Source: Patescibacteria group bacterium
GTDB lineage: Bacteria > Patescibacteriota > Patescibacteriia > JBDRGY01
DNA: 64,000 nt
Assembly (NCBI GenBank): GCA_043817315.1
Contig: JBDRGY010000002.1
Span: 1,046 to 65,045, forward strand
Reading direction: 5' to 3'
A model generated the notes under the pieces. The model was given only the letters and a program-made list of their open reading frames with translations. It was not told where the DNA came from and did no database searches. A program made the position numbers and the translations under genes. This document shows positions 19,510 to 64,000 of the stretch, in pieces. Numbering within the stretch: the first letter of the stretch is position 1; each line of letters opens with the position of its first letter.

Positions 19510-19586
19510 GCGCCCGTAGCTCAATTGGATAGAGCGCTTGGCTTCGGACCAAGAGGTTGGGGGTTCGACTCCCTCCGGGCGTACCA
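19510..19586 (+). tRNA. tRNA-Arg (anticodon TCG), CCA encoded
   Basis: Cloverleaf folded by eye: acceptor GCGCCCG/CGGGCGT, D-arm GCTC-AATTGGATA-GAGC, anticodon stem CTTGG/CCAAG with loop CTTCGGA, T-arm GGGGG-TTCGACT-CCCTC, then A and CCA. Confidence 0.9.
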
Positions 19587-19599
19587 GCCAGAAAATTAG

Positions 19600-19675
19600 G
19601 CGCCCATAGCTCAATTGGTAGAGCGCCTGCCTCTTAAGCAGGGTGTTGCAGGTTCGAGTCCTGCTGGGCGTACCA
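19600..19675 (+). tRNA. tRNA-Lys (anticodon CTT), CCA encoded
   Basis: Acceptor GCGCCCA/TGGGCGT, anticodon stem CCTGC/GCAGG with loop CTCTTAA, T-arm GCAGG-TTCGAGT-CCTGC, then A and CCA. Confidence 0.9.
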
Positions 19676-30501: not shown

Positions 30502-30556
30502 GGGCCGTTAGCTCAGTTGGCTAGAGCGTCACTTTCGCACCCGCCTATCGGAGTGC
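30502..30556 (+). pseudogene. 5' fragment of a tRNA-Ala (CGC)-like gene (acceptor, D-arm and anticodon-loop remnant) directly upstream of the complete tRNA-Ala(CGC)
   Basis: GGGCCGTTAGCTCAGTTGGCTAGAGCGTCACTTTCGCAC is near-identical to the 5' half of the tRNA-Ala at 31767. No matching anticodon 3' stem or T-arm follows. Continues as linker CCGCCTATCGGAGTGC. Confidence 0.5.
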
Positions 30557-30628
30557 GGGCCAGTAGCTCAGTGGTAGAGCACTGCATTCGCATTGCAGGG
30601 GTCAGGGGTTCGACTCCCCTCTGGTCCA
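30557..30628 (+). tRNA. tRNA-Ala (anticodon CGC), G3:U70, no encoded CCA
   Basis: Acceptor GGGCCAG/CTGGTCC (G3:T70), D-arm GCTC-AGTGGTA-GAGC, anticodon stem CTGCA/TGCAG with loop TTCGCAT, T-arm AGGGG-TTCGACT-CCCCT, discriminator A. Confidence 0.9.
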
Positions 30629-30702
30629 TTTCCGCACGGCGGGCAGGTGGCGAAAGTCGCCCCGCTTTTTGGCGGAGCACGGCACCAAATCAAAAAAATG
30701 CC

Positions 30703-31492: not shown

Positions 31493-31707
31493 AGACTAAA
31501 AACGCTTGCTAGTATTTCTCTTTTTAAGCTATAATCTTTCTAGTAAGCGTTTTTGTTTATGGGCCGGTCCCTAGGTCCCGCACTGCGGGACCGGGATCCC
31601 GATCACCAAAAGTGACTTAGGGATAGTTCAGTTTCCGCCAAAGGCGGACCAGCCTCTGGCTGGGGCTATCATCTCTTTGCGATAAAAAGTATTATATTAA
31701 TCAATTT

Positions 31708-31891
31708 GGGCCGGTAGTTCAGTTAGCTAGAATGCCTCCATGGCATGCCTGCCCGCCAGGACCCATGGGCCGTTGGCTCAGTTGGTAGAGCGTCTCCATG
31801 GCATGGAGAAGGTCACCGGTTCGAATCCGGTCCGGTCCATAGGCTCTGGCAGGCGGGGAGGAGGTCAGGGGTTCGAGTCCCCTCCGGTCTA
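31708..31891 (+). tRNA. Outer tRNA-Ala (GGC) gene interrupted between positions 38 and 39 by a 110-nt insert (31747..31856) that contains a second complete tRNA-Ala(GGC)
   Basis: 5' exon 31708..31746: GGGCCGG TA GTTC-AGTTAGCTA-GAAT G CCTCC ATGGCAT. 3' exon 31857..31891: GGAGG AGGTC AGGGG-TTCGAGT-CCCCT CCGGTCT A, followed by TTTTTTATTT. All stems pair (G1:U72, G3:U70). Insert flanks GCCTGCCCGCC and GGCAGGCGGGG are mutually complementary. Confidence 0.5.
31767..31839 (+). tRNA. tRNA-Ala (anticodon GGC), nested inside the outer tRNA-Ala locus; no encoded CCA
   Basis: Acceptor GGGCCGT with G3:T70, D-arm GCTC-AGTTGGTA-GAGC, anticodon stem TCTCC/GGAGA with loop ATGGCAT, T-arm ACCGG-TTCGAAT-CCGGT, discriminator A. 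Confidence 0.85.
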
Positions 31892-54351: not shown

Positions 54352-54426
54352 GGCCACGTAGCCAAGTGGTAAGGCGGAGGTTTGCAAAACCTTTATTCGG
54401 CGGTTCGATCCCGCCCGTGGCCTCCA
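54352..54426 (+). tRNA. tRNA-Cys (anticodon GCA), CCA encoded
   Basis: Acceptor GGCCACG/CGTGGCC, anticodon stem GAGGT/ACCTT with loop TTGCAAA, T-arm GGCGG-TTCGATC-CCGCC, then T and CCA. Confidence 0.9.
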
Positions 54427-54486
54427 TCCTTCGACAAGCTCAGGATGAGCATTGGAGAAGGATGCCCTGAATTTATTGAAGGGCAA

Positions 54487-54744
54487 ATGAAATATTACGT
54501 CTATATTTTAAAATGTGACGAGGAAAATTTATATACGGGATCGACTTGTGATTTGAAAAATCGGATTGAAAAGCATAAAAAAGGAGAAGGTGCTATATTT
54601 ACCAGAAACAGAAAATCGATTAAACTTGTATATAAAGAACTTTATAAAATAAGGGAGTTGGCTGAAAAAAGAGAAAAGCAGATAAAAGGGTGGTGCAGAA
54701 AAAAGAAGATAAATTTAATCAAATTTGGCCATCCTCTAGGGTAA
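54487..54744 (+). CDS. Small GIY-YIG nuclease-domain protein (85 aa)
   Basis: MKYYVYILKCDEENLYTGSTCDLKNRIEKHKKGEG; GIY-YIG core (YVYIL...LYTGST...R...H). The upstream part of the ORF-track ORF overlaps tRNA-Cys and is excluded. Confidence 0.75.
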   Translation: MKYYVYILKCDEENLYTGSTCDLKNRIEKHKKGEGAIFTRNRKSIKLVYKELYKIRELAEKREKQIKGWCRKKKINLIKFGHPLG

Positions 54745-54753
54745 ATAGAATCT

Positions 54754-54828
54754 GCGGATGTCGTATAATGGTTATTATTCATCCTTGCCAAGGATGAGAT
54801 GGCGGTTCGATTCCGCTCATCCGCTCCA
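54754..54828 (+). tRNA. tRNA-Gly (anticodon GCC), CCA encoded
   Basis: Acceptor GCGGATG/CATCCGC, anticodon stem CATCC/GGATG with loop TTGCCAA, T-arm GGCGG-TTCGATT-CCGCT, then T and CCA. AT-rich D-stem with one mismatch. Confidence 0.8.
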
Positions 54829-55829: not shown

Positions 55830-55901
55830 AGCGGGTGAGCGGAATCGAACCGCCGTCTTCAGGTTGGAAACCTGACATAATAGCCACTATACTACACCCG
55901 C
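55830..55901 (-). tRNA. tRNA-Gly (anticodon TCC), no encoded CCA
   Basis: Minus-strand sequence GCGGGTG TA GTAT-AGTGGCTA-TTAT G TCAGG TTTCCAA CCTGA AGAC GGCGG-TTCGATT-CCGCT CACCCGC T. Confidence 0.85.
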
Positions 55902-55958
55902 CCGCCCAATTCCTGGAACCTACATCTTTCTAGATAAGTTACAAGAATTGGGCGGGCG
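55899..55958. repeat. Perfect 14-bp inverted repeat CGCCCGCCCAATTC ... GAATTGGGCGGGCG with 32-nt loop, overlapping the 5' end of tRNA-Gly(TCC)
   Basis: Arms at 55899-55912 and 55945-55958 are exact reverse complements. Lies immediately downstream of the minus-strand GIY-YIG gene stop (55963). Confidence 0.5.
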
Positions 55959-55962
55959 CGCC

Positions 55963-58781: not shown

Positions 58782-60008
58782 CTATTTCATAGTATCAGCC
58801 TCGGCTCTTTCAGTCACTGGAATCTCCATTAAAACAACGGCTCTATGTCTACCATTTTCTTCTTGAGTTCCTACTTGTGTAACACTTGCAGAAGAAATGT
58901 TGGTATCATAAAGCAAGTTGCCGTCTGGGGTCTTTACTCCCCCTTGATATTTAGCAATTTCTCCTCTAGCCTGCATCGTTGCTCTATCAACAGCAATCTG
59001 AAAATCACCTGAAGTCATACTTTTTACCACTAATAATTTTCCATCTTTTTCAAAAACCTTATCAATATTATCCCATAGCCAGTCCTCATCAATATCTACA
59101 CCACTCTCTAGTCTCTCAACGTCAATAGTGATCGGTTCATAAACTCTTTCTGCTTCTTTTGCTGCCGCTTCTGATTCAAGCACTGGTGGTTTTAATCCTT
59201 CTTCTCCTATTTCAGTTTGAGCTGCTGATCTGAAGGTGACTTCATTAACCATTTGTTCAAGACCATACTGTAAACTCTTAACTCTAAGGTCTGGGTTGTC
59301 CTCATTTTCCATCATGTACTTAGCGTATTCTATCATCTGGTCACAACTTGCTCTAAATCTGGTTTCTTGGCCGTGCGTTTCAGCTGAAGCAATACCTGCC
59401 TTTATCATGTTGTCCAATAACACTTTTCCTTCTTCCTGAGTTAATCCGTCAATCTCTCCCATTTGAGGTATATATTCTCCGATTACTGACTTCACCGCCT
59501 CGACATCTAAATCAGTTGGCTCTGCCTCTGCTTGTTCTCCTGGAGCGATCTCTTCACCTGCCTCTGAGATTTCTTCTTCGCCTTCACCCTCTTCTGGTTG
59601 ATCTTCATCTCCTGCCTCATATCCACTTCCTGTTTCAGCAGCTGTGGCTACACCAGCAGCTACTCCCAACACCATTGCCGCTAAAACAACAGTTTTAACA
59701 GTCTTACCAAATTTACCCTTCGCTGCTCCACGCAGTTTGCTCAATGCTGATGAAACCTTTTCTTCCACTTCATCTCCAACTTCTTCAGGCGTTCTGCCTT
59801 CAGCATCGATGTCTAATTCATCTAATAACCCTTTAACTGCTTCTTGTTGGGGGCCTAATTGCTCGGCCATCCTTGCTTTGGCATATTGTTCCATGACCAC
59901 CTGTCCTTCAACTGCTTCAGCTAAGGCAGCTGGGTCTATCTCAGGAGTTCCTTCTGTTTCATTGGCTATTTGTTCTTTAACCTCCGATGGGACTTCTCCT
60001 CTTCTCAT
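58782..60008 (-). CDS. Acidic (Glu/Asp-rich) protein with one internal TM helix; function unknown
   Basis: 408 aa; TM segment KTVKTVVLAAMVLGVAAGVATAAE flanked by E/D-rich low-complexity regions; no recognisable family. Confidence 0.5.
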   Translation of the reverse strand: MRRGEVPSEVKEQIANETEGTPEIDPAALAEAVEGQVVMEQYAKARMAEQLGPQQEAVKGLLDELDIDAEGRTPEEVGDEVEEKVSSALSKLRGAAKGKFGKTVKTVVLAAMVLGVAAGVATAAETGSGYEAGDEDQPEEGEGEEEISEAGEEIAPGEQAEAEPTDLDVEAVKSVIGEYIPQMGEIDGLTQEEGKVLLDNMIKAGIASAETHGQETRFRASCDQMIEYAKYMMENEDNPDLRVKSLQYGLEQMVNEVTFRSAAQTEIGEEGLKPPVLESEAAAKEAERVYEPITIDVERLESGVDIDEDWLWDNIDKVFEKDGKLLVVKSMTSGDFQIAVDRATMQARGEIAKYQGGVKTPDGNLLYDTNISSASVTQVGTQEENGRHRAVVLMEIPVTERAEADTMK

Positions 60009-60030
60009 AATATTTTAGGTTAATAATAGA

Positions 60031-60284
60031 TGGTGCCGAGGGGCAGAATCGAACTGCCGACGCAAGGATTTTCAGTCCTTCGCCCCGCCCGCCGAACAAC
60101 GGCGAACTTGGAAGTAATCTACCTTTGGTGCCTGGGGCCAGAATCGGACTGGCGACGCAAGGATTTTCAGTCCTTCGCTCTACCACTGAGCTACCCAGGC
60201 TTCAAAGACAGACTACAAATTTCTTTTTCAATCAACTATATTCGCTCGGCGTTGCGGACAGGTCTACCACTGAGCTACCTCGGC
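60031..60284 (-). other. Nested tRNA-Phe locus: split outer tRNA-Phe-like copy flanking the complete tRNA-Phe
   Basis: 5' fragment 60263-60284 is GCCGAGG TA GCTCAGTGGTAGA. 3' fragment 60031-60082 is CGAAGGA CTGAAAA TCCTT GCGTC GGCAG-TTCGATT-CTGCC CCTCGGC A CCA. Acceptor strands GCCGAGG/CCTCGGC pair across the intervening complete gene. Linkers contain CCTGTCCGC and GGCGGGCGGGG. Confidence 0.5.
60126..60200 (-). tRNA. tRNA-Phe (anticodon GAA), CCA encoded
   Basis: Minus strand: GCCTGGG TA GCTC-AGTGGTA-GAGC G AAGGA CTGAAAA TCCTT GCGTC GCCAG-TCCGATT-CTGGC CCCAGGC A CCA. Confidence 0.9.
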
Positions 60285-60356
60285 TAATTTTAAAAAAAAA
60301 CCTATTTGCTATATCAGTTTAGCCGACCAAGGGCAAAAAGTCAACTAGAAAAACTC

Positions 60357-62003
60357 CTATTTTGGGGAATATTTATAGATTCTAACGTAATCACCCTTAA
60401 GCAAATCTACCCGGCAAGTTCTTAAAACCGAAAAGTCGTTACTGTATAAAAGCTGTTCGGGAGTGTATTCCGGGTTAGGTTCTACGGCGTAGATTAATTC
60501 GTTTTGGGAGGTTAGTTGCTGGTACTGTTCCGCCGCCCAGACAAAGTTGGGTTCGGGATCGGGGAAACCAGCCTCCTGAAGAATGCGACCGTGTACCCCT
60601 CCGGAAATGATGAAGTGGGTCGCTCCTTGCTTTTCATATTCTTCTCGGTCTCGCACAGTTAAATTGGGAACCTTTTCGGTAATATATTTATCAGCAGGCA
60701 AATCCGGGGTATACGGTTCTACTACAAATTCAGTACCTTCCGGCATTTCCCGTAATATATATTGGCGTGCTTTCTCAATAGTGTAGTCATCCGCCCAACC
60801 GTACATGGTCCGAGCTAAGCGCCAGGCAGGGGCAGCAAATATGATTATACAGATTAAAACCGCTAACCAGCGGCGGCGACTACAATACTTAAAAATATAA
60901 TCAAGACCGGCTGCTCCCATGATAAATAAGATAGTAACCGCCGGGATCAACCATCTGGCCCAGTGCAGATTAAGAACGGACAGCAATAAAATGTAGCTGA
61001 TGACGCTGATTAACAGAAAGAAAAACTTAAATTCACGCTGGCTATATTTCTTTTTGATTATCTTGTAGCAAATAAAAAATATAATTGCTAGGGTTATCAA
61101 AAATAGAAAGGTGCCCAGTTGCCAGTGTAGAGTATCTATGGTATACCATTTTAAATTGCCCCAAAAACCAAGATCATCATGACCTCCGTGCTCCGTCCGG
61201 TTTTCAATTACCAGATGATAAAGCACACGGTGGAAATTCAAAAATAAAAACGGCCCGGTGACAAAGCTAGCCACAATAGCTGCAAAACCACTGGCCAGCC
61301 AGTTCTTGATAAACAGTTTCTTCTGACGCCACAACCAAACAAATATCATGATTAGTGGCACTACAAAAAATAGAGAAGGATATTTAGTAGCCGCGGCCAC
61401 TCCCAGGCTGGCTCCGACCCCCAGATACCAACCAATTTTGGCCGGCTGATCGATCAAGCGGAAGACAAAAAACAACATCAGCATCAAGAAAAAAGTTTGG
61501 ATAATGTCTGGTCGGATTATATGTGAGTGGTCCACCAGAAAAAATGAGGTGGCCACCAGAATTGCAGCTATAATTCCTGTTCTTTTATTCCAGTGCTTAC
61601 CGACAAAGTAGGCCAACAAAACAGTAGCCGCTCCCAAGAGAGCAGGTAACATCCGGCCGGCTGTCTGAAAAATGGTGGTAAATAACTGGTAGTTTTGGGA
61701 AGCGGCTAAGGCAGTCTCGTGAGCTTGGTTAACAAAAAAGTTAATAATTCTAAAAATAAAACCCATGCCATAGATCAGGGACTGGGCAGGAGCACCAAAC
61801 CAGCCGGGGTTTAAAGCACCGTTGGCAATATTGAGGGCCGGTTCTACGAAAAATTCTTCATCCACCAAATAAAGCCGGGGTAATCCAAAACTGATAAAGA
61901 CCAAACGCAAAATCAGGCCAATTAAAAAAATCGCCATTAGTATGATGAATATCTTGCTGGGCTTGCGAATATGTTTCATTCCTTTGGCGATTATGGTGGG
62001 CAC
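60357..62003 (-). CDS. GT-C superfamily membrane glycosyltransferase (GT39/ArnT/PMT-like), second copy
   Basis: 548 aa, about 12 TM helices plus a C-terminal soluble domain. The ORF-track start is a GTG at 62003 that overlaps the outer tRNA-Ile 3' fragment; the ATG at 61979 is an alternative start. Confidence 0.55.
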   Translation of the reverse strand: MPTIIAKGMKHIRKPSKIFIILMAIFLIGLILRLVFISFGLPRLYLVDEEFFVEPALNIANGALNPGWFGAPAQSLIYGMGFIFRIINFFVNQAHETALAASQNYQLFTTIFQTAGRMLPALLGAATVLLAYFVGKHWNKRTGIIAAILVATSFFLVDHSHIIRPDIIQTFFLMLMLFFVFRLIDQPAKIGWYLGVGASLGVAAATKYPSLFFVVPLIMIFVWLWRQKKLFIKNWLASGFAAIVASFVTGPFLFLNFHRVLYHLVIENRTEHGGHDDLGFWGNLKWYTIDTLHWQLGTFLFLITLAIIFFICYKIIKKKYSQREFKFFFLLISVISYILLLSVLNLHWARWLIPAVTILFIMGAAGLDYIFKYCSRRRWLAVLICIIIFAAPAWRLARTMYGWADDYTIEKARQYILREMPEGTEFVVEPYTPDLPADKYITEKVPNLTVRDREEYEKQGATHFIISGGVHGRILQEAGFPDPEPNFVWAAEQYQQLTSQNELIYAVEPNPEYTPEQLLYSNDFSVLRTCRVDLLKGDYVRIYKYSPK

Positions 62004-62379
62004 GGATGGATTCGAACCATCGACCTCGTCATTACCTGCCCGCCGTACGGATACACGTATTAATCATCTACTGCTGGTGGGCACGGATGGAGTTGAACCA
62101 TCGACCTCGTCATTATCAGTGACGCGCTCTAACCAACTGAGCTACGTGCCCCCCAGCAGTAGACAAAAATAAACTTCCTATTGGTTGGGTTAATGTAAAA
62201 GTTCTTTGAGGCACCGTACTCCGGCAGGCGGGTCAGTGACCCCGCAACTAGGTTCGTTACACTCGCCAGTGCGGGGCAGGCGCGCTTTCCTATTTGGTGC
62301 TTACAGTAAGTTGGTGCGCTCCCCGTCCGACTGTCTGGCGTCAGTCAAGCTGACGGGTAGCTAACTGAGCTACGTGCCC
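61994..62379 (-). other. Nested tRNA-Ile locus: split outer tRNA-Ile-like copy flanking the complete tRNA-Ile(GAT)
   Basis: 5' fragment 62358-62379 is GGGCACG TA GCTCAGTTAGCTA. 3' fragment 61994-62034 is TAA TGACG AGGTC GATGG-TTCGAAT-CCATC CGTGCCC A CCA, preceded by GGCGGGCAGG (62035-62048). The upstream linker contains CCCGCCTGCC and GCCTGCCCCGC. Confidence 0.5.
62075..62151 (-). tRNA. tRNA-Ile (anticodon GAT), CCA encoded
   Basis: Minus strand: GGGCACG TA GCTC-AGTTGGTTA-GAGC G CGTCA CTGATAA TGACG AGGTC GATGG-TTCAACT-CCATC CGTGCCC A CCA. Confidence 0.9.
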
Positions 62380-62448
62380 AAACTAAAAAGGATTTTCAAT
62401 ATCCAAGTATATACCAATTTATCAGAAAAACTTAGTTTTGACAAGTGT

Positions 62449-63096
62449 TTATAGTCCGGACTTTTCTTCCGGTCTTTCCTGTAAACTGGCGTCAAAAATA
62501 AAGCGATTGAGAATTATGTGCCACTTATCCTTTACTTGCGGCCACTCTGTTTTTATGCCGGAAAAGCGCTTAACTACCACCACCAGTAACAAGCCGATAA
62601 AGACCCAGCCCTGCCAATAAGGAAGCCTAAAGATAACCACAGCTACTGGTAGGCAGGAGAAAAACAAAATCATGGGAATGGGTGTATGTTTGGTTATTAT
62701 CCAAAAAATGATAAAAATTATGAAGCAGTAGAGAAAGGCTTTGGGCGCTAACACGGCAGCCAGGCCAAGGCCAGCTCCACCTCCTCGTCCTTCTCCCCGT
62801 TTTAAGAAAATTGACCAGTTGTGCCCGACCACCCCCAGTACACCACCAATTGCTCCTATCATCGGCCAGCCCAGATAATTGCCGATGAGCACCGGCAAGA
62901 CTCCTTTGGAAATATCCAGAGCCCCGGAAATGATCGCCGGCCCTACTCCGGCTGTCCGGGCTACATTGGACCCGCCCATTTTTCGCCAACCATGTTCGGT
63001 GACATCGATACCTTTGAATATTTTGCCGGCGAAAAAACCAAAAGACATAGCTCCCCAAAGGTAACAAGTGATCAAAAATATTATCTGCCAAATCAT
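62449..63096 (-). CDS. plsY: Glycerol-3-phosphate acyltransferase PlsY
   Basis: About 6 TM helices; IDVTEHGWRKMGGSNVARTAG corresponds to the PlsY motif (REHGSGNxGATN) and overall PlsY length and topology. Confidence 0.7.
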   Translation of the reverse strand: MIWQIIFLITCYLWGAMSFGFFAGKIFKGIDVTEHGWRKMGGSNVARTAGVGPAIISGALDISKGVLPVLIGNYLGWPMIGAIGGVLGVVGHNWSIFLKRGEGRGGGAGLGLAAVLAPKAFLYCFIIFIIFWIITKHTPIPMILFFSCLPVAVVIFRLPYWQGWVFIGLLLVVVVKRFSGIKTEWPQVKDKWHIILNRFIFDASLQERPEEKSGL

Positions 63097-63448: not shown

Positions 63449-64000
63449 TAGAAAGGAGGTGATCCATCCACAGCTTCCGCTACGGATGCCTTGTTACGAC
63501 TTCGTCCCTATTATCGATCCTACCTTCGGCCCAGTAAACTGGGACTTCGGGTATTACCGACTCTCTTGACGTGACGGGCGGTGTGTACAAAACCCGAGAA
63601 CGTATTCAACGCGCCGTGGCTGATGCGCGTTTACTAGTGATTCCAGCTTCATGAGGTCGAGTTTCAGACCTCAATCCGAACTGAGACTAGGTTTGATGGG
63701 ATTAGCTCCACGTTACCGTTTCGCAAGACCCATTGTTACTAGCCATTGTAGCACGTGTGTCGCCCAGGGCGTCAGAGGACCATGCTGATCTGACGTCATC
63801 CCTTCCTTCCTCCCCCTTAAAGGGGGCAGTCTGACATGAACAATTTAACATATCACAGGGGTTGCGCTCGTTTCCGGACTTAACCGTACATCTCACGACA
63901 CGAGCTGACGACGACCATGCAGCACCTGTCACTAGGCTCCTTTGCAGGCACATTCTCCTTTCGGTGAATTTCCTAGGATGTCAAGCCCTGGTAAGGTTTC
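63449..64000 (-). rRNA. rrs: 16S ribosomal RNA, 3' portion (continues beyond window end)
   Basis: Plus strand carries reverse complements of the universal 16S 3' motifs: AGAAAGGAGGTGATCC (anti-SD end), TACGGCTACCTTGTTACGACTT-like ACGGATGCCTTGTTACGACTT, TGACGGGCGGTGTGTACAA and GCATGGTCGTCGTCAGCTCGTG. The covered region corresponds to roughly E. coli positions 970-1542. Confidence 0.9.

Follow-up and report, generated by a model that had tools for sequence, protein, structure and literature searches.

A complete tRNA-Phe gene inside an interrupted tRNA-Phe gene of a Patescibacteria group bacterium: evidence for a probable small mobile cassette

How does a complete tRNA gene come to lie between the two halves of another tRNA gene with the same anticodon? 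The question is raised by a tRNA-Phe locus at positions 60031 to 60284 (minus strand) of a 64,000-nt stretch of DNA from a Patescibacteria group bacterium (assembly GCA_043817315.1, contig JBDRGY010000002.1, positions 1,046 to 65,045), referred to here as the window. The initial annotation had described fragments of a second tRNA-Phe on either side of a complete tRNA-Phe(GAA), had assigned both to one outer gene split near position 23/24, and had left the nature of the arrangement open. We find that the fragments are the halves of one outer gene. Most likely this was a resident gene that a mobile cassette, the insert, has inactivated; a split gene whose parts are re-joined is the less likely account.

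The nested tRNA-Phe locus and its sister loci

The tRNA-Phe insert ends in short inverted repeats, here called arms, which at related loci occur in two orientations relative to the tRNA, the second being termed flipped. The locus is composed as follows, with the basis of each assignment in brackets.

60284-60263 (-), 22 nt: 5′ exon of the outer tRNA-Phe, GCCGAGGTAGCTCAGTGGTAGA, with the acceptor 5′ strand and the D stem and loop, to position 23 in standard numbering (sequence, self-BLAST, re-joining)
60262-60084 (-), 179 nt: insert, or cassette, consisting of left arm, linker, inner tRNA, linker and right arm (removal gives a perfect tRNA-Phe(GAA))
60254..60262 (-): left arm CCTGTCCGC, the flipped type CCTGCCCGCC altered with pairing kept (sequence, fold)
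60201..60253 (-), 53 nt: 5′ linker, complementary to the 3′ linker (fold)
60126..60200 (-): complete inner tRNA-Phe(GAA), CCA encoded, T loop TCCGATT (ARAGORN, Rfam)
60094..60125 (-), 32 nt: 3′ linker (fold)
60084..60093 (-): right arm GGCGGGCGGG (arm motif search)
60083-60031 (-), 53 nt: 3′ exon of the outer tRNA-Phe, GCGAAGG...CCTCGGCACCA, with the end of the D stem, anticodon arm, T arm, acceptor 3′ strand and ACCA (sequence, self-BLAST, re-joining)
60316..60344 (-): promoter-like site, TTGACT-17 nt-TAAACT, upstream of outer exon 1 (consensus match only, not in itself a sign of function)

The inner tRNA-Phe(GAA) was called by ARAGORN and scored 68.1 bits against the Rfam tRNA model. When outer exons 1 and 2 were joined (22 + 53 = 75 nt, the same length as the inner tRNA), ARAGORN called a flawless tRNA-Phe(GAA), which bears out the assignment of both fragments to a single gene split at about position 23/24; in a self-BLAST, the 3′ fragment matched with E = 5.9e-14 and the 5′ fragment with E = 2e-4. 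The placement of the fragments stands with two small corrections: the 5′ fragment lies upstream of the inner tRNA as described, at a distance of 62 nt and not 61, and the 3′ fragment contains the anticodon arm, T arm, CCTCGGC and CCA as described, with a best length of 53 nt and not 52. A recount also upheld the claim that the outer acceptor strands (GCCGAGG/CCTCGGC) are perfectly complementary and distinct from the inner ones (GCCTGGG/CCCAGGC), the two acceptors being two compensated pairs apart. The T arms differ by one compensated T-stem pair and one T-loop base (inner TCCGATT, outer TTCGATT), and 68 of the 75 positions are identical between the two tRNAs.

The termini of the insert pair with each other (CCTGTCCGC/GCGGGCGGG). 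Folding of the whole locus, which the initial annotation had proposed, predicted nested cloverleaves for 260 nt, with the linkers and arms forming a long joining helix (−101.8 kcal/mol, z = −4.5; none of 200 shuffles was as stable). Neither a direct repeat nor duplicated target bases were found at the two insert junctions, and removal along the arms restores the outer gene exactly. The 179-nt insert contains no open reading frame (ORF). By consensus matching, the interval from outer exon 1 to the inner tRNA is free of promoter-like sites, and the site at 60316..60344 is the sole one ahead of either tRNA-Phe. A weak tRNA-Phe call by both ARAGORN and Rfam at 60034-60103 (-), scoring 29 bits, exactly the gathering threshold, is the outer 3′ exon misread together with linker sequence and not a gene.

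The initial annotation had likened this locus to Ala and Ile loci of the same stretch, down to a G-rich linker end directly before the outer 3′ fragment. Both likenesses were found in the sequence: one Ile and two Ala loci share the nested plan, each with a complete tRNA enclosed by the two parts of a gene for a tRNA with an identical anticodon.

61994..62379 (-): tRNA-Ile(GAT) locus (nested plan), with outer pieces at 62379-62358, 62286-62281, 62239-62233 and 62034-61994 (sequence, re-joining)
62232-62035 (-): Ile cassette, arms CCCGCCTGCC/GGCGGGCAGG, inner tRNA at 62151-62075
30502..30687 (+): tRNA-Ala(CGC) locus (Ala-1), outer 5′ part at 30502-30539 and degenerate outer 3′ part at 30648-30687
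30540-30647 (+): Ala-1 cassette, slightly divergent left arm CCCGCCTATC, inner tRNA at 30557-30628
31708..31891 (+): tRNA-Ala(GGC) locus (Ala-2), outer exons at 31708-31747 and 31858-31891
31748-31857 (+): Ala-2 cassette, flipped arms CCTGCCCGCC/GGCAGGCGGG, inner tRNA at 31767-31839

The Ile locus contains an additional hairpin (62280-62240) and further inserted sequence upstream. Across the 64 kb, arm motifs are essentially confined to tRNA loci. The remaining eight tRNAs of the window are plain, without nested flanks, and a whole-window scan for tRNA genes interrupted by hairpins only returned just artefacts around known tRNAs.

Two smaller features accompany the Ala loci. At Ala-1, no tRNA 3′ half follows the right arm; the sequence there can pair with the outer anticodon arm, to which it is complementary (ACTTTCGC/GCGAAAGT, 30531-30538 and 30650-30657 (+)), and the arm helix is thereby longer. 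Upstream of Ala-2, tRNA-like debris at 31560-31700 (+) contains GGGCCGG...GATCACCA as well as a segment that forms two mini-hairpins, TCCGCCAAAGGCGGA and CCAGCCTCTGGCTGG, which recur in decayed outer tRNA genes of other genomes.

Recurrence, arms and insertion sites

Other genomes and metagenomes were searched for the same plan in two scans, both of which demanded exact arms; arm diversity and frequency are therefore underestimated, and the counts are lower bounds. The genome scan (one genome per species) required an inner T arm followed by ACGGCGGGCAGG within 12 to 42 nt, left the left arm unspecified, and returned at least 118 loci. The metagenome scan required the two arms only, 85 to 115 nt apart, and returned at least 121 matches. 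In a de novo search, nested tRNAs were sought under a relaxed arm criterion, since a perfect 8-mer misses the canonical arms because of a conserved C·A mismatch. Together the scans yielded at least about 80 further nested loci, in Patescibacteria, some Bacteroidota and other metagenome-assembled genomes (MAGs). Individual sequences are cited below by handles such as L030.

About 42 of the 118 listed genome loci, all of low GC, carry CCCGCCTGCC where the unspecified left arm was expected and are surrounded by outer tRNA halves. Their hosts comprise many Patescibacteria classes, four Bacteroidota and some otherwise-labelled MAGs, whose labels may be wrong. High-GC matches of the genome scan contain no tRNA and look like chance. 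Exact arm removal gave a valid tRNA in 16 listed genome loci, and the outer anticodon equalled the inner one in all 16. Among the 121 listed metagenome matches, 39 hold a tRNA, every one of them in a tRNA context; the arms are oriented one way relative to the tRNA in 11 of these cassettes and flipped, the commoner form, in 28. The outer gene re-forms on exact arm removal in 26 of the 39, with the same anticodon in 22 and damaged loops in 4. None of the other 82 listed matches, which are tRNA-free, has flanks that join into a tRNA. In every readable case the outer anticodon matches the inner, and at least 20 anticodons are covered among the matches listed. The general plan is a complete tRNA flanked by conserved inverted arms, CCCGCCTGCC...GGCGGGCAGG or flipped, all inside a tRNA gene. 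A simple partial tandem duplication, which the initial annotation had named as a possible refutation of its proposal, is ruled out by the nested order, the conserved inverted arms and the recurrence in many unrelated genomes.

In viral contigs, a scan yielded no low-GC nested loci; its matches were high-GC ones attributable to chance, apart from a single hairpin type of an unrelated kind. As a separate observation, a cargo-free hairpin, CCCGCCTTCGCC...CTACGGCGGGCAGG, lies right after or overlaps a tRNA 3′ end in L037, L061, L070, L093, L107 and L126/L127; its hosts are higher-GC genomes (several labelled Verrucomicrobiota) and one viral contig.

The cassettes are 105 to 180 nt long and non-coding, with inverted arms of 10 to 16 nt that are conserved across loci. 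The arms of the window tRNA-Phe cassette are of the flipped type, with base changes that preserve pairing, and other arm sequences are likewise always complementary (TCCTGTACTAAAAA/TTTTTAGTACAGGA in L041, CCCTCCCACC/GGTGGGAGGG in L081). The arms retain one C·A and one U·G position, which creates two perfect 6-bp registers, CCCGCC/GGCGGG and CCTGCC/GGCAGG, both conserved. Among the matches listed, insertion sites cluster in three loop-proximal hot spots, at positions 21-23, 34-37 and 54-55. Position 23/24, the site used in the window tRNA-Phe, is reused in a tRNA-Val (L033) and a tRNA-Arg (L176), and insertion after GGTAGA is seen in a tRNA-Leu (L042) and two tRNA-Thr genes (L130 and L144).

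Some AT-rich elements of about 105 nt that hold no tRNA are likewise bounded by extended arms, CCCGCCTGCCATCGCC...GGCATTGGCGGGCAGG; they occur between genes and in tandem arrays and have the same 16-nt ends as the cassettes. In L172 (2290-2980), a tandem series of arms-only hairpins, each 37 nt long, leads into 4.4 copies of a 70-nt unit made up of an arm and a tRNA-Arg 5′ exon. An intact tRNA-Arg(CCT) comes next, and then two copies of a 69-nt unit in which a 3′ exon is joined to an arm. Judged by these sequence patterns, the arms look like the ends of mobile elements. In L159, L166, L175, L210 and L244 from the metagenomes, the tRNA-free elements are repeatedly preceded by TCCCGTTAGA(A/G)(A/G) and mostly followed by TAGGA; this context may represent either a favoured target or an extension of the conserved end.

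Comparison of loci also gives a succession of tRNA-Phe types. The tRNA order Ile-Phe-Pro-Gly(TCC) is common to the window, L115 and L041. L115 has an uninterrupted tRNA-Phe with the acceptor GCCGAGG/CCTCGGC, the outer type of the window. In L041 the outer tRNA-Phe has the acceptor GCCTGGG/CCCAGGC, the inner type of the window, and is itself interrupted by a cassette carrying GCTCGGG/CCCGAGC. Three or more nesting levels were found in L081, L095 and L172, the first two being three levels of tRNA-Arg(TCT). L002 and L003, the nearest loci to be had, with the order Ile-Val-Phe, simple tRNAs and a 16S 3′ part that is 84% identical, are too distant to inform timing.

Origin of the insert

We consider it probable that the insert is a mobile cassette, small and non-autonomous, which puts a tRNA gene out of action while supplying its replacement and, as a part of this proposal held with the same confidence, that a tRNA-Phe cassette inserted into the D-arm region (position 23/24) of a resident tRNA-Phe gene. 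The interrupted outer gene would be dead on arrival. Transcription from the outer promoter would read through the cassette, and ordinary tRNA end-processing enzymes would release the inner tRNA, perhaps after a double-strand RNase opens the helix of arms and linkers, leaving the host dependent on the cassette copy. Only cassettes that land in the cognate gene would survive and persist: the anticodons would match because an insertion without a tRNA would be lethal in a tRNA gene present once, and a cassette without a promoter would be lost elsewhere. Movement of the arms would depend on an enzyme acting in trans, and repeated rounds of insertion would produce nested series.

The fates of the two copies are consistent with such an asymmetry. 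In the listed metagenome set, all 39 inner tRNAs fold, with a mean of 0.31 unpaired stem positions; an outer tRNA is predicted in 26 of the 39, with a mean of 1.69. The other outer genes contain extra mini-hairpins (TCCGCC-NNN-GGCGGA, CCCGCC-TGG-GGCGGG or TCAGCC-NNN-GGCTGA) or have lost an exon. The listed genome loci can be arranged as a decay series, from perfect outer genes through extra hairpins in the outer D and T loops (L006, L027, L030, L108, L120 and the window Ile) and truncation of the outer 3′ exon (L053, L032) to the absence of left arm and 5′ exon (L024, L051, L076, L094, L119), with just the right arm and a stub remaining in L024, L053 and L032. The outer 3′ end is lost in L009 and kept in its close relative L006, and in the Bacteroidota L034, L065, L074 and L077 the inner copy is intact in all and the outer copy damaged in two. 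Two of these, L065 and L074, are from Ekhidna sp. and have a nested tRNA-Arg(CCT). No decayed inner tRNA between intact outer exons was seen among the matches listed. One-sided decay is the pattern expected if the inner gene is essential and the outer one is not. The inner and outer copies are frequently only 70 to 78% identical, with both folding; in those loci, therefore, the cargo is not a recent copy of its host.

Several observations weigh against the mobile-cassette proposal. A large number of outer genes remain perfect, in some cases (L030, L006) despite three or four separate insertions. In L192, L079, L041 and the window tRNA-Phe, the acceptors of the inner and outer copies differ solely by compensated pairs, a pattern that could mean selection on the outer helix. 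The T loop of the window inner tRNA-Phe carries C55 and that of the outer one is canonical; the TCCGATT loop is probably tolerated, since L140, in which the outer gene lacks a 5′ exon, also has it in its inner tRNA. The proposal leaves unexplained the origin of cassettes with matching cargo for at least 20 anticodons. The inner gene may not be the sole tRNA-Phe, the window covering only 64 kb of the genome. Neither the window nor the surroundings of arm arrays (six loci) gave a candidate transposase, RtcB or EndA-like gene, though no systematic search was made, and mobility is deduced from the distribution of the elements. There is no close relative in the collections; for the neighbouring protein, the best homologue reaches 45% identity. 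Linkers, compared with inner and outer copies as a possible neutral clock, turned out to be constrained by pairing themselves.

The alternative that survives best, which we nevertheless judge unlikely, is that the insert is a true RNA intron. A putative protein (or RNA) activity recognizing the arm helix would remove the insert from the outer pre-tRNA and ligate the exons, so that one locus would provide two tRNA-Phe molecules. Worked out as a protein-dependent splicing system that recognizes the GC-rich arm helix, an idea we hold to be equally doubtful, it would make the outer genes genuine tRNA genes with multiple introns, and a second tRNA could be encoded within an intron; the extra hairpins found in other outer genes would then be introns as well. 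Perfect tRNAs on exact arm removal in many loci, the perfect re-joining of multi-piece outer genes (L030), the compensated acceptor pairs that distinguish inner from outer, the conservation of two alternative 6-bp arm registers and the more canonical T loop of the window outer tRNA-Phe all speak for splicing. However, among the 82 listed matches with arms and no tRNA, not one is located in a tRNA gene that can be re-joined; the outer genes in which cargo-free inserts were seen all contain an intact copy already or lie next to one; and decay is one-sided, the outer copy being lost and the inner never. Identical arms also bound intergenic elements and arrays, and wherever the host gene can be read its anticodon is also that of the cargo, an agreement that splicing does not need. 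The inserts have neither a bulge-helix-bulge motif nor a group I core, the window offers no ligase or endonuclease candidate, and we know of no bacterial mechanism for such splicing.

Known classes of interrupted tRNA gene were rejected individually. For a group I intron or other ribozyme, no Rfam match was obtained at the gathering score, nor at E ≤ 1 in 59900-62500, and what remains of the insert without the 75-nt tRNA is too short for such an intron. The group I boundary rule (U ending the 5′ exon, G ending the intron) does not hold, since the Phe, Ile and Ala-1 5′ exons end in A; the Ala-2 5′ exon ends in G or U, the boundary being ambiguous, and the terminal G of the insert is present but belongs to the arm. 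An archaeal bulge-helix-bulge intron, which has two 3-nt bulges on either side of a 4-bp helix at its junctions, was rejected because the first and last bases of the insert pair and the helix that starts at the junctions is uninterrupted; no splicing endonuclease (EndA) or ligase domain was found in the scanned ORFs of the window. The halves are collinear and 179 nt apart, which does not fit a split or permuted tRNA gene.

It is slightly less plausible still that the outer halves and arms are an exapted scaffold, clamping the transcript so that the inner tRNA folds, is processed or is stabilized. The fold of the entire locus, with its long closing helix and z score of −4.5, would suit this role, as would the compensated acceptor differences that keep the two helices distinct and the outer 3′ part of Ala-1, which is no longer tRNA-like yet complementary to the outer anticodon arm. 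Such a scaffold would have to be dispensable, however: many loci have lost one or both outer halves with the inner tRNA intact, and most tRNAs in the window have no such flanks. A local nested duplication by a replication or repair accident, with the arms as by-products and no mobile element, appears very improbable. Inner and outer copies are the same or nearly so in L091, L172 and the window Ile, as duplication would have it, but the inner/outer identity is often just 70 to 78%, the arm sequence is conserved across phyla and at least 20 anticodons, and the same arms are found without a tRNA.

Scars left by the integrases of genomic islands or phages, or an assembly artefact, are the least credible explanations, with hardly any likelihood in our estimation: tRNA genes are classic integration sites where displaced 3′ fragments are common, and the congeners L065 and L074 differ downstream of the right arm, but here 5′ and 3′ relics both flank an ORF-free 179-nt insert without a direct repeat at its two junctions, no low-GC nested matches came from viral contigs, and the same structure is present in more than 80 independent assemblies. 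A tRNA-targeting integrative element was accordingly rejected for want of an integrase ORF and an attachment-site (att) direct repeat, a phage origin on the viral scan (chance high-GC matches and the unrelated hairpin only), and an assembly artefact on the recurrence.

Comparison with known systems and neighbouring features

In the literature searched, which leaves out most subscription journals, we found no description of a nested tRNA cassette. Elements that integrate into tRNA genes (phages, islands and tycheposon-type elements) resemble the cassettes in using a tRNA target, compensating the damage, leaving relic tRNA fragments and, after serial events, leaving a series of such fragments. 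They carry a restoring 3′ fragment, whereas the cassette carries a whole tRNA gene with relic halves on both sides; the cassette is also only 0.1 to 0.2 kb long and has no integrase gene, no att-type direct repeat and inverted-repeat ends. Miniature inverted-repeat transposable elements (MITEs), doublets of repetitive extragenic palindromic (REP) sequences (REPINs), Rickettsia palindromic elements and yeast mitochondrial GC clusters are likewise short, non-coding and hairpin-forming, with inverted-repeat ends. The MITE/REPIN type is further similar in being GC-rich in AT-rich genomes and multi-copy, in forming tandem arrays and in that it may sit in genes, including RNA genes. In contrast to these, the cassettes have a tRNA gene as cargo and a cognate tRNA gene as target, produce no target-site duplication, and have no identified partner transposase or REP-associated tyrosine transposase (RAYT). 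Measured against the definition of a MITE, they are short and non-coding and have terminal inverted repeats but lack the target-site duplication; measured against that of REPs and REPINs, they show the doublet architecture and arrays, and the tRNA-bearing members are intragenic, unlike extragenic REPs.

Archaeal tRNA introns and split or permuted genes (Thermoproteales, Nanoarchaeum) interrupt the D arm, anticodon loop and T loop, sometimes several times, and the introns are helix-closed inserts for which mobility between tRNA genes has been proposed. The cassettes differ from them in their bacterial host, in having no bulge-helix-bulge, in containing a complete tRNA and in the decay of the interrupted genes. 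Group I introns are known in the anticodon loops of bacterial tRNAs, including position 35/36 in Patescibacteria (PMC13011429), and a 2026 survey of tRNA introns in Patescibacteria reported group I introns only. These introns share the phylum and the anticodon-loop site 35/36, which many cassettes use too; in contrast to them, the cassettes are 105 to 180 nt long with a tRNA interior and no group I core, also occupy D-arm and T-loop sites, and follow 5′ exons that do not end in U. A last parallel comes from phages, in the selfish linkage of an element's inheritance to tRNA genes. SegB is a free-standing homing endonuclease in the tRNA gene cluster of phage T4, and the window likewise has an ORF with a GIY-YIG nuclease domain between two tRNA genes; unlike SegB, the cassette contains no endonuclease, and the GIY-YIG ORF shows no link to the cassettes.

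If the mobile-cassette proposal is true, these elements would be a class of selfish DNA that solves the problem of insertion into an essential single-copy gene by bringing the replacement. They would be a natural example of a neutral ratchet, with the host dependent on the element's tRNA after insertion, and a route for horizontal tRNA-gene turnover in reduced genomes. They would also explain why assemblies of Patescibacteria contain many tRNA fragments and odd "pseudo-tRNA" calls, that at 60034-60103 among them, and would imply a compact, exact, loop-targeted insertion activity of a putative enzyme. Miscalls of exon plus linker inflate tRNA counts, which is relevant to work on genome quality and codon usage. 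Should splicing prove to be the explanation, the inserts would be a third kind of intron in Bacteria, with two tRNAs made from one promoter.

Some further features of the window concern other tRNA genes and the neighbourhood. Directly upstream of tRNA-Gly(TCC), at 55897-55960 (-), lies a 14-bp inverted repeat, CGCCCGCCCAATTC ... GAATTGGGCGGGCG, with one mismatch to the arm motif and a right half that overlaps the tRNA 5′ end. The adjacent tRNA-Arg(TCG) and tRNA-Lys(CTT) at 19510-19675 (+) are about 93% identical in the acceptor and D arm over their first 27 to 28 nt and have a common 3′ end, GGGCGTACCA. The GIY-YIG ORF mentioned above is small (54382-54744 (+)) and stands between tRNA-Cys (54352-54426) and tRNA-Gly (54754-54828). 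RNase Y and a metallo-beta-lactamase-fold protein are also encoded in the window. From the 3′ end of the 16S rRNA gene, which is of bacterial type, a plsY-like gene comes first and the tRNA-Ile locus next (62449-63096, 63452-64000 (-)); the 63 kb downstream of the 16S gene contain no 23S gene, so the rRNA genes are unlinked here.

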